64,000 nucleotides of DNA, from assembly GCF_003918875.1 (NCBI RefSeq), contig NW_025767269.1:124001-188000 (forward strand), given 5' to 3'. Below, in pieces: positions 33,388 to 34,943 of the stretch (position 1 is the first letter of the stretch; each line of letters begins with the position of its first letter). The stretch is from Haliotis rubra. Taxonomy: Eukaryota. The notes under the pieces are model-generated. The model was given only the letters and a program-made list of their open reading frames with translations, was not told the origin of the DNA and did not search any database. The position numbers were made by a program, and so were the translations under genes.

Positions 33388-34943
33388 CCAGAGCACTCAA
33401 CATGTTGATAGCCATGATGTGATTCAGTGAGCGAGTATATCTACGCTGCTTTTAGAAATATTCCAGCAATATCACAGCAGGGGACACACACATATGCATT
33501 GTACCAATGTGGGAAATTGAACCCGGGTCTTTGGCGTGACGAGCAAACGCTTTAACCACAAGGCTGTTATGATGTGAATAAGGTTTAGATGTGTCGAAGT
33601 TTCGACAGTTTTGTTTTAGCCTTTGTTTTTATTTTAACGCTTACAATTCGTTAATTTGAAAATATCAATTATATTGGGAGAGGGTAGAGACTGGGTGGGG
33701 ACAGGGTAGGGACTGTGTGGAGACTGGGTCGGGATCTACTTGTATATATCTCTTCGCAATGTACATCGTGTATGCGCTTGGTTAATGTTTTTCATGTAAA
33801 GATTTGTATTCTGGCTCATGACCTATATGAAATAAACTGAACTCTACATGTTTGTGTGTGCACTATATCCATCTTGGGTCGCACCTTCACAAGATATCAT
33901 GGTCTGAGTATCAGTACACTCGACTATGCATTAGACATCAGACAATCGCTGGTGATAAAATGGCATTTTATCGTCCCAAACGGGCTTCCGCGGGACATAT
34001 CGCCTGGTTGATATCAGATAATGACACATCGTAACACATGTTATATTTGAGATATACAGGTTATCACACTCGTGTGTTTTGGGATGATTAAAATCCTGTA
34101 ATAGGAATAAACATTGCATTTAACGAGCCTTGTGAGCTAGATACATAGTGTTTATTCGGAATTCTAATGCAGGATATTAACCAACCTATTTACCATACAA
34201 TGTCATTCTCACTCTATGATTTTGAAATAAAATGCGATTTCAATTGCCACAAATCATGAAACTAAACATCGTGGAATTTGCACATATATCTAGCAGTTAT
34301 ATAATGATGGTTCTTGACCACTTCCTCTTATAGGCTTATTTCTACGTAATTCCGCTCCCAGCGCCAAGTATAAAATAGTGATTTTCGAGCAGAGACATCA
34401 TTCGATGTACAGCCGAGCTCGCCAGCCTAGACACTCATCTCATTTTCGCTAGGGCTACCCATTTTTTCAGCAACTACAAATCAACTACTGACTAGACCTC
34501 GACATGCCTAGTAGAGTTTCCTTTATAAGAATCTTATTTTCGCTAGGGCTACCCATTTTTTCAGCAACAATTTTTTCGACCCGACACCAAGGTTGCTCGA
34601 ACTTCCAATTAGACATATGGAGTTGCTACAGTATACAGGATACACTCCGACAACAACTATGGCAAAACAAAATCTCAGCAACTTTCCAAGAAATGGGCAT
34701 TCGGTGCAGCAAATCGATCGCACACCACCTCCTACTGGAAAACATACACGACAACAACTTTGTGTCCGATATCTCGATGGTAGACTATCTCGCCGGAAAT
34801 ATCGGGGAAACCCACCTGCAACCACTCTCCAGTCTTCCAGCCTTTGTCGACGGCCTCTACGTGTTTGGGTATCTATTTTCGCAAAGACATAGTGCAGCAC
34901 AAGGGAAGCGTCCAGAGTACAACTACTACAATCCAAGCAAATC

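Follow-up and report, generated by a model that had tools for sequence, protein, structure and literature searches.

The element and its parts

The window (the whole stretch of DNA analysed, 64,000 nucleotides of the Haliotis rubra genome) contains an element at positions 34292-39133 that is bounded by termini of the Polinton/Maverick AGT type (Table 1). Its ends read inward AGTAGT and AGCAGT, and TATCT abuts both of them as a 5-bp target duplication; the families to which the two outer arms belong are high-copy, and their matches end at 34292 on the left and at 39133 on the right. The earlier note had described an inverted repeat at this locus as terminal; the element reaches further out, to 34292 and 39133, with TATCT beyond each end. 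By blastn, the host repeat that lies to the left of the element finds no match to the right flank (0/19), which counts against the reading preferred below; by eye, only about 14 letters of the right flank resemble that repeat.

Table 1. Features of the element, in window coordinates.
Feature	Position	Strand	Remarks
Left 5-bp target-site duplication	34287..34291		TATCT
Captured Polinton terminal arm, family 1	34292..34523	+	Starts AGCAGT (variant of AGTAGT); most matches start at 34292, identity up to 97%
Origin-motif copy without junction sequence, part of the Polinton arm	34437..34474	+	Core present in 21/24 loci of the terminal family
Inverted duplicate of the cassette origin end	34524..34923	+	Fixed start TATAAG, motif 34531-34568, ATG 34659, ~85 codons, out of frame
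11-bp tandem array	34944..35177		5' of the small gene
Small companion gene, broken (4 stops)	35246..35842	+	Homologue in 23/83 family loci, metagenome loci included
Main gene, predicted Rep_trans-like nickase family	36206..38822	-	~860 aa in intact homologues
Host interspersed repeat inside main gene	36661..36905
Cassette origin	38823..38960	-	Fixed 5' end T^TATAAG (likely nick site), then the likely binding site, motif 38916-38953
Captured Polinton terminal arm, family 2	38961..39133	-	Starts AGTAGTAGTACAG; pPolB (PF03175) and integrase (PF00665) adjoin such ends elsewhere
Right 5-bp target-site duplication	39134..39138		TATCT

Between the two arms lies a gene-bearing cassette, whose main gene survives here as several pieces with stops, frame breaks and one inserted repeat. 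The small companion gene has no match in Pfam, PHROGs or IMG/VR, and its N-terminus is, by eye, what we take to be a helix-turn-helix-like region. CTAG-rich arrays related to the window's 11-bp array occur in other cassette copies. The element's own frames include no pPolB, integrase or capsid gene. The host repeat within the main gene is found in at least five places in the window (also at 11802, 17552, 48033, and 53349) at 93-94% identity; the main-gene copy is shorter than the others and has a short direct repeat on its flanks.

Elsewhere in the window are an intronless 734-codon frame with RING, B-box, and NHL domains (TRIM-like; 31183-33387, plus strand), a tRNA-Arg(CCT) called by ARAGORN (30782-30875, minus strand), and two mutually related, long imperfect palindromes with arms of 49-53 nt (39833-39957 and 40528-40747).

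An inverted repeat of variable length

The inverted repeat itself is real and much as first described: 34523-34914 aligns with the reverse complement of 38571-38961 at 374 of 395 columns (94.7%), start codons are present in both arms (ATG at 34659, plus strand, and at 38822, minus strand), the 38-bp motif occurs at 34437 and 34531 on the plus strand and at 38916-38953 on the minus strand, and the outer parts are diverged yet alignable (72/106 in the best part, 119/234 overall). The left arm does carry the ATG and the first ~85 codons of the main gene, but the reading frame is lost a few codons after the ATG. When aligned to other copies the left arm extends to about 34923; the right copy has a gap, which is why the repeat ends at 38571. 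The inner junction at 34914 is bridged by short-read contigs from two samples, one of which may be the assembly's own source (34823-34964 in a record of sample X1, 34820-34983 in a record of sample X2), and the junction between host and left end by a single contig (X1, 34100-34338). An assembly inversion of the left arm, which had been named as a way in which the observation could fail, is therefore unlikely.

Alignment of other copies shows that the long inverted repeat is not a fixed family trait: in subfamily A it measures 51-1762 bp and is absent from many copies, outside subfamily A it reaches ~3.6 kb, and many copies carry a single origin. No shared terminator end was found among 10 copies compared, and fold-backs are numerous across cassette copies. 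From the variable length, the single-origin copies and the lack of a shared terminator it follows that the inverted repeat is a recurrent copy-back product rather than a fixed terminal inverted repeat, and a strand-switch duplication, one of two sources suggested earlier, is likely to have supplied the second arm. The other suggestion, copy-correction as the cause of the greater outer divergence, gives way to a different origin of the arms, which diverge because they derive from two different Polinton terminal-repeat families.

Facing origins are frequent. They occur in 9 of 20 loci of a hand-chosen and biased set in which two loci are duplicates, of 46 exact origin matches 14 face a partner less than 10 kb away (7 pairs), and such pairs are also present in subfamilies B and C and at locus L101; the window's two arms are 94.7% identical to each other and at most 93.2% identical to other copies. 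Both observations fit a rather unlikely alternative, in which the cassette is an AAV-like linear single-stranded satellite whose origin-to-origin unit replicates by Rep-driven terminal resolution, the Polinton ends being side products that let some copies integrate; a weak SSB/OB-fold match in the C-terminal part of the main protein (E 0.025) fits it as well. It is opposed by the spread of repeat lengths from 51 bp to ~3.6 kb, by the number of single-origin copies, by the lack of a terminal hairpin, capsid or helicase, and by the empty result from IMG/VR. The earlier analogy with ambisense ssDNA viruses is not supported either, as the element has no capsid, helicase or HUH motif; a densovirus/parvovirus-like NS1 (HUH plus SF3 helicase), a capsid and terminal hairpins were all looked for in the element and none was found.

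The reading of this region as the origin end of a Rep-type element is upheld. The 38-bp motif, proposed as a nick or binding site, is probably a binding site; the fixed break lies ~20 nt 5' of the mini-hairpin and not inside it. The GGG-CTA-CCC mini-hairpin itself does not stand out as a structure, at -1.2 kcal/mol and no better than shuffled sequence in four stretches (z -0.23 to +1.92). Nor is the motif copy at 34437 a duplicate belonging to the cassette: it is carried by the Polinton arm itself, whose family has it at 21 of 24 loci.

The main protein

The protein family has no significant match in Pfam, in a sequence search of the PDB or in PHROGs (20 proteins), and the window's frames together with seven homologues do not match the Pfam models Rep_trans (PF02486) or Phage_CRI (PF05144). 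Structure and residue pattern point to these same enzymes, which the available text of two papers describes as built on a sheet like that of TBP, with a D-D-E metal site and the motifs YxK and RxE (PMC4797284, PMC5714925), with solved Reps scoring Z 5.4 to TBP (PMC4797284); Rep_trans is named for inoviruses and plasmids (PMC6668415). In Foldseek searches with the model of a natural homologue (pLDDT 87.5), RepDE (4cwe) ranks first in the PDB (E 0.027) and an inovirus Rep is among the top rows of the viral set (E 6.9e-4). The domain model matches RepSTK1 (4cij) with Z 5.8 and rmsd 6.3 over 183 aligned residues (Foldseek prob 0.80, E 5.8e-3), and TBP, which scores above the Rep_trans structures, with Z 8.7 and rmsd 5.5 over 155.

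Seven residues are conserved almost without exception in a diverse set of 39 members: D62 (39/39), D206 (37/38), D210 (38/38), Y276 (39/39), K278 (39/39), R323 (39/39), and E325 (38/39), the N-terminal D of the metal triad being assigned by position only. The conserved D-D-Y-K-R-E residues all lie in strands of the model, and in hhalign the family's residues fall in order on three Rep_trans/Phage_CRI motifs (Phage_CRI, E 0.0017, probability 15%; Rep_trans, E 0.05, probability 1%), other domains giving nothing. The RxD arginine is absent, position 204 being S, Q or C, and motif II is not recognised. The family has no conserved HUH motif, and its tyrosine is in a strand, not in a YxxK helix. An Atlas score of 0.88 for the protein serves as a lead only. 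By prediction from models and alignments, then, the main protein works like a Rep_trans enzyme; no single test reaches a strict threshold, and membership in Rep_trans is not established.

A wide structure search did not confirm the C-terminal OB-fold, its rows being taken by coiled coils. In iridoviruses, marseilleviruses, and other large DNA viruses the catalytic domain also found weak fold matches (E 3e-3 to 5e-2), both to VETF-like large subunits and to proteins that are uncharacterised.

Cassette copies in the genome and in other organisms

The cassette is multicopy, with at least 40 scored DNA loci and at least 151 protein matches at 42-89% identity in the 1.38-Gb assembly, and falls into three subfamilies in this genome. 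The protein family numbers 96 matches by sequence and 242 by profile, or 746 clusters at E<=1e-10, the weaker of which may be coiled-coil matches. Named sources of intact homologues are the sea slug Elysia crispata, the sea anemones Nematostella vectensis and Actinostola sp., and one symbiont-MAG entry. IMG/VR holds no match for the family, and prokaryote genomes only one 1.5-kb contig, which is in a symbiont MAG and likely to be host contamination. No free or packaged form of the cassette was seen.

In a second organism, nine metagenome contigs share the fixed start T^TAGAAC behind five different flanks, two of which lie in pPolB coding DNA; the junction there fuses an N-terminal pPolB frame in frame to an intact Rep frame (L109:7-3114, L111:86-3499). 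Of 21 loci, 6 have a paired-repeat motif like that of the window on the 5' side of the gene, against 0.4 expected, by a pattern written after some of the loci had been seen. Two observations count against generality: Polinton coding DNA was detected by tblastx in only 3 of 43 metagenome loci, most of which are short contigs, and locus L141 has AGTAGT ends without a target duplication.

The origin junction and its targets

The subfamily A set comprises 51 origin junctions with 45 distinct flanks; conservation sets in at -3 and continues inward, and the bases further out are random. Two further subfamilies have fixed starts of their own, T^TATCGAG and T^TATAGG/T^TACTAG. T^TATAAG is the likely nick site; the cut may sit one base earlier, because the T is common to donor and target. 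Folding against shuffled sequence revealed no stable hairpin at the junction, which counts against the preferred reading.

Upstream of the fixed start lies Polinton DNA, cut at many positions. The 147-nt upstream flank matches Rep-free Polinton references at 43 of 51 junctions of subfamily A and 27 of 34 of subfamilies B and C, compared with 27 of 196 control tiles; the flanks that match no reference (8/51 and 7/34) count against the preferred reading. AGTAGTA is found upstream within 750 bp on the same strand at 37 of the 51 junctions and on the opposite strand at 15, whereas only 8 of 152 background tiles have it, although survivor bias, integration needing two Polinton ends, could inflate this link with termini. 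Some junctions lie within terminal repeats, others within coding DNA for integrase or of capsid-like type; for two query frames the name capsid is our own assumption, with no library match.

Simple insertion into Polintons was ruled out as an explanation: among 66 junctions examined, 44 were testable and in none (0/44) does the Polinton resume 3' of the cassette, so that the cassette replaces a Polinton end. This result also makes it very improbable that the cassette is an autonomous IS91/Helitron-like rolling-circle transposon that merely inserts into Polintons, a reading that is already largely refuted. IS91 moves by one-ended transposition, which the fixed origin end and variable far end resemble, and the bias of the target sites described next would suit such an element too; besides the missing downstream half of the split Polinton, however, the 10 copies compared have no conserved terminator, and the protein has no HUH or helicase domain.

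Empty targets were found for 42 of 73 distinct junctions. T stands at -1 in 34 of the 42 and A at +2 in 33 (p ~1e-12 each, against a base background of 26%), while T is at +1 in only 18; because the A at +2 is kept and the T at +1 is not, the side of the target that is discarded must have been read as well. One TTTAT site of family-1 arms is joined by all three subfamilies (in the window, at L197/L228, and at L196).

The Polinton arms

Each arm of the window's element resembles its own Polinton terminal family, with identities that reach 97% for the left arm and 94% for the right, and the two are 51% identical to each other. The right-arm family adjoins pPolB (PF03175) and integrase (PF00665) frames elsewhere in the genome and the left-arm family adjoins pPolB in 8 of 11 loci; as both end families are found beside Polinton genes, each arm is a piece of a Polinton terminal family, and the two families differ. 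A third end family lies beside Polinton genes in 8 of 9 loci and a fourth in 19 of 20. A frame labelled ATPase was left out of these counts, since it cross-matched pPolB regions.

AGT-repeat ends (5'-AGTAGT...ACTACT-3') are a common Maverick end motif, and vertebrate Mavericks make 6-bp duplications, according to the available text of PMC8097293. In this genome Rep-free Polintons likewise show 5-bp duplications, and an exact 5-bp duplication is present at 8 of 35 candidate end pairs and at 7 of another 22 loci, among them elements with unlike ends (the window, L031/L032, and L278). The 27 of 35 end pairs without a duplication count against the preferred reading, though many are non-terminal pattern matches.

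Several further features of Polinton ends were noted. Ends of family 1 carry the cassette motif without the junction sequence, ~50 nt from the TTTAT site used by all three subfamilies (L176-L199), and graded remnants of the motif (L179, L182, L184, L188, L196) suggest that the Polinton may have captured it from a cassette; it could act as a decoy or as a landing pad. A tRNA-like stretch was seen by eye in Polinton arms ~170-230 nt inside the terminus (L053, L054, L063, L069, L180); ARAGORN reports no tRNA gene in the stretches of six loci, and a pol III promoter is possible. A self-complementary block of ~110-170 nt, with AGTAGT...ACTACT as its limits, stands at the start of two Polinton end families and of loci from other organisms (L008, L025, L005, L009, L138:3995-4118, L102:620-785).

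The same material could be explained by defective-interfering Polintons, in which the gene is cargo, the junctions come from template switching of the polymerase at short homology, and the protein binds DNA as a TBP-like factor without catalytic activity. TBP is indeed the best structural match (Z 8.7), the copies contain many fold-backs, and the T at -1 is common to donor and target. We nevertheless regard this explanation as quite unlikely: template switching would not pin one side of the junction to a single base in three subfamilies and in a second organism; the A at +2 is conserved although most targets do not match at +1; the residues that never vary are those of Rep_trans catalysis; and in family 4 no locus (0/20) has both the cassette gene and Polinton core genes.

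A proposed grafting model

The reading we hold to be probable is that the window contains a broken copy of a multicopy cassette whose start is linked, always at one base, to DNA from Polinton termini, and that the predicted Rep_trans-like tyrosine nickase likely makes this join, for replication and integration by Polinton proteins. Copies have a fixed start, variable Polinton arms, a lost Polinton remainder, AGT termini with 5-bp duplications, a T^NA bias at the target, and frequently an inverted second origin; catalysis by the nickase and dependence on Polintons as helpers are what we infer from them.

In the proposed course of events, Rep would bind the repeated motif, nick T^TA, and hold the 5' end of the cassette as a phosphotyrosine, after which a second active site would act at T^NA on a single Polinton strand that has been displaced. 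This cut would free a 3'-OH on the piece carrying the Polinton terminus, and that end would be joined to the cassette in a one-ended strand transfer. In Rep_trans chemistry, as far as the available text of PMC5714925 describes it, the enzyme stays on the 5' side of the nick, from which the polarity of the product is predicted: a foreign 3' end on a fixed cassette 5' end, upstream of motif and gene. The far end would arise by template switching, often by copy-back of the origin end, giving the long inverted repeat; a second origin would be able to take a Polinton end of its own, giving unlike outer arms as in the window. Polinton polymerase and integrase would then act in trans on the AGT ends.

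A broader claim, towards which we lean only slightly, is that these cassettes form an undescribed class of animal mobile elements, namely Polinton satellites, widespread in marine invertebrates, with a plasmid-type non-HUH nickase that cuts at T^NA and grafts a viral terminus; the uncleavable motif in one Polinton lineage would be a possible decoy.

Implications

Rep_trans-type rolling-circle chemistry is described, in the sources available, for bacterial plasmids, phages, and ICEs; if the grafting model is true, it extends to animal genomes, and Polintons gain a dedicated parasite that takes its helper's ends instead of mimicking them. The set of junctions would be a fossil record of Polinton replication intermediates and therefore bears on extrachromosomal replication of Polintons in animals, both its occurrence and its manner. 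In addition, a large protein family without annotation is given a name, as a predicted compact, site-specific enzyme that cuts and joins single strands at the short target T^NA.

Comparison with known systems

The cassette is a real element, probably of an undescribed kind. No description was found in the available text of the literature (including PMC8502044, PMC11071296, and 10.64898/2026.06.19.733378), and the family may already have a name in Repbase/Dfam, in subscription journals, or in supplements; circovirus-type nickases are mentioned for some polisuviruses (10.64898/2026.10.13.758929).

With the Rep_trans/Phage_CRI initiators (pT181 RepC, RepD/RepDE 4cwe, RepSTK1 4cij, and inovirus Reps) the cassette protein shares a TBP-like curved sheet, here by prediction, and the D, D, E metal set followed in order by YxK and RxE (PMC5714925, PMC4797284), and in the cassette, too, the binding motif and the gene are preceded by a fixed 5' end. 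It differs in that its protein is ~860 aa long, with extra middle, coiled-coil, and C-terminal domains and a replaced RxD arginine. Unlike pT181, the cassette has no origin hairpin, resides in animal genomes, and is joined to linear viral ends, not to a circle.

Polintons/Mavericks (adintoviruses) share with the cassette the AGTAGT...ACTACT ends, the target duplication, and arms that are 94-97% identical to resident ends; the duplication is 5 bp here, as in the genome's own Polintons, but 6 bp in vertebrates (PMC8097293). In contrast to them, the cassette itself encodes neither polymerase nor integrase nor capsid, and its arms may come from different families.

Helitrons, Replitrons, and IS91-type elements share the logic of tyrosine strand transfer and a fixed origin end (PMC5714925, PMC10288648). 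Their enzymes are HUH enzymes and they insert into a target, whereas the cassette enzyme is non-HUH and the downstream part of its target is lost.

AAV, helper-dependent satellites, and copy-back defective genomes provide precedents for a small Rep-bearing genome, for inverted origins, and for helper dependence, the last of which likely holds for the cassette. Unlike AAV, the cassette has neither capsid nor SF3 helicase, and it physically takes the termini of its helper.
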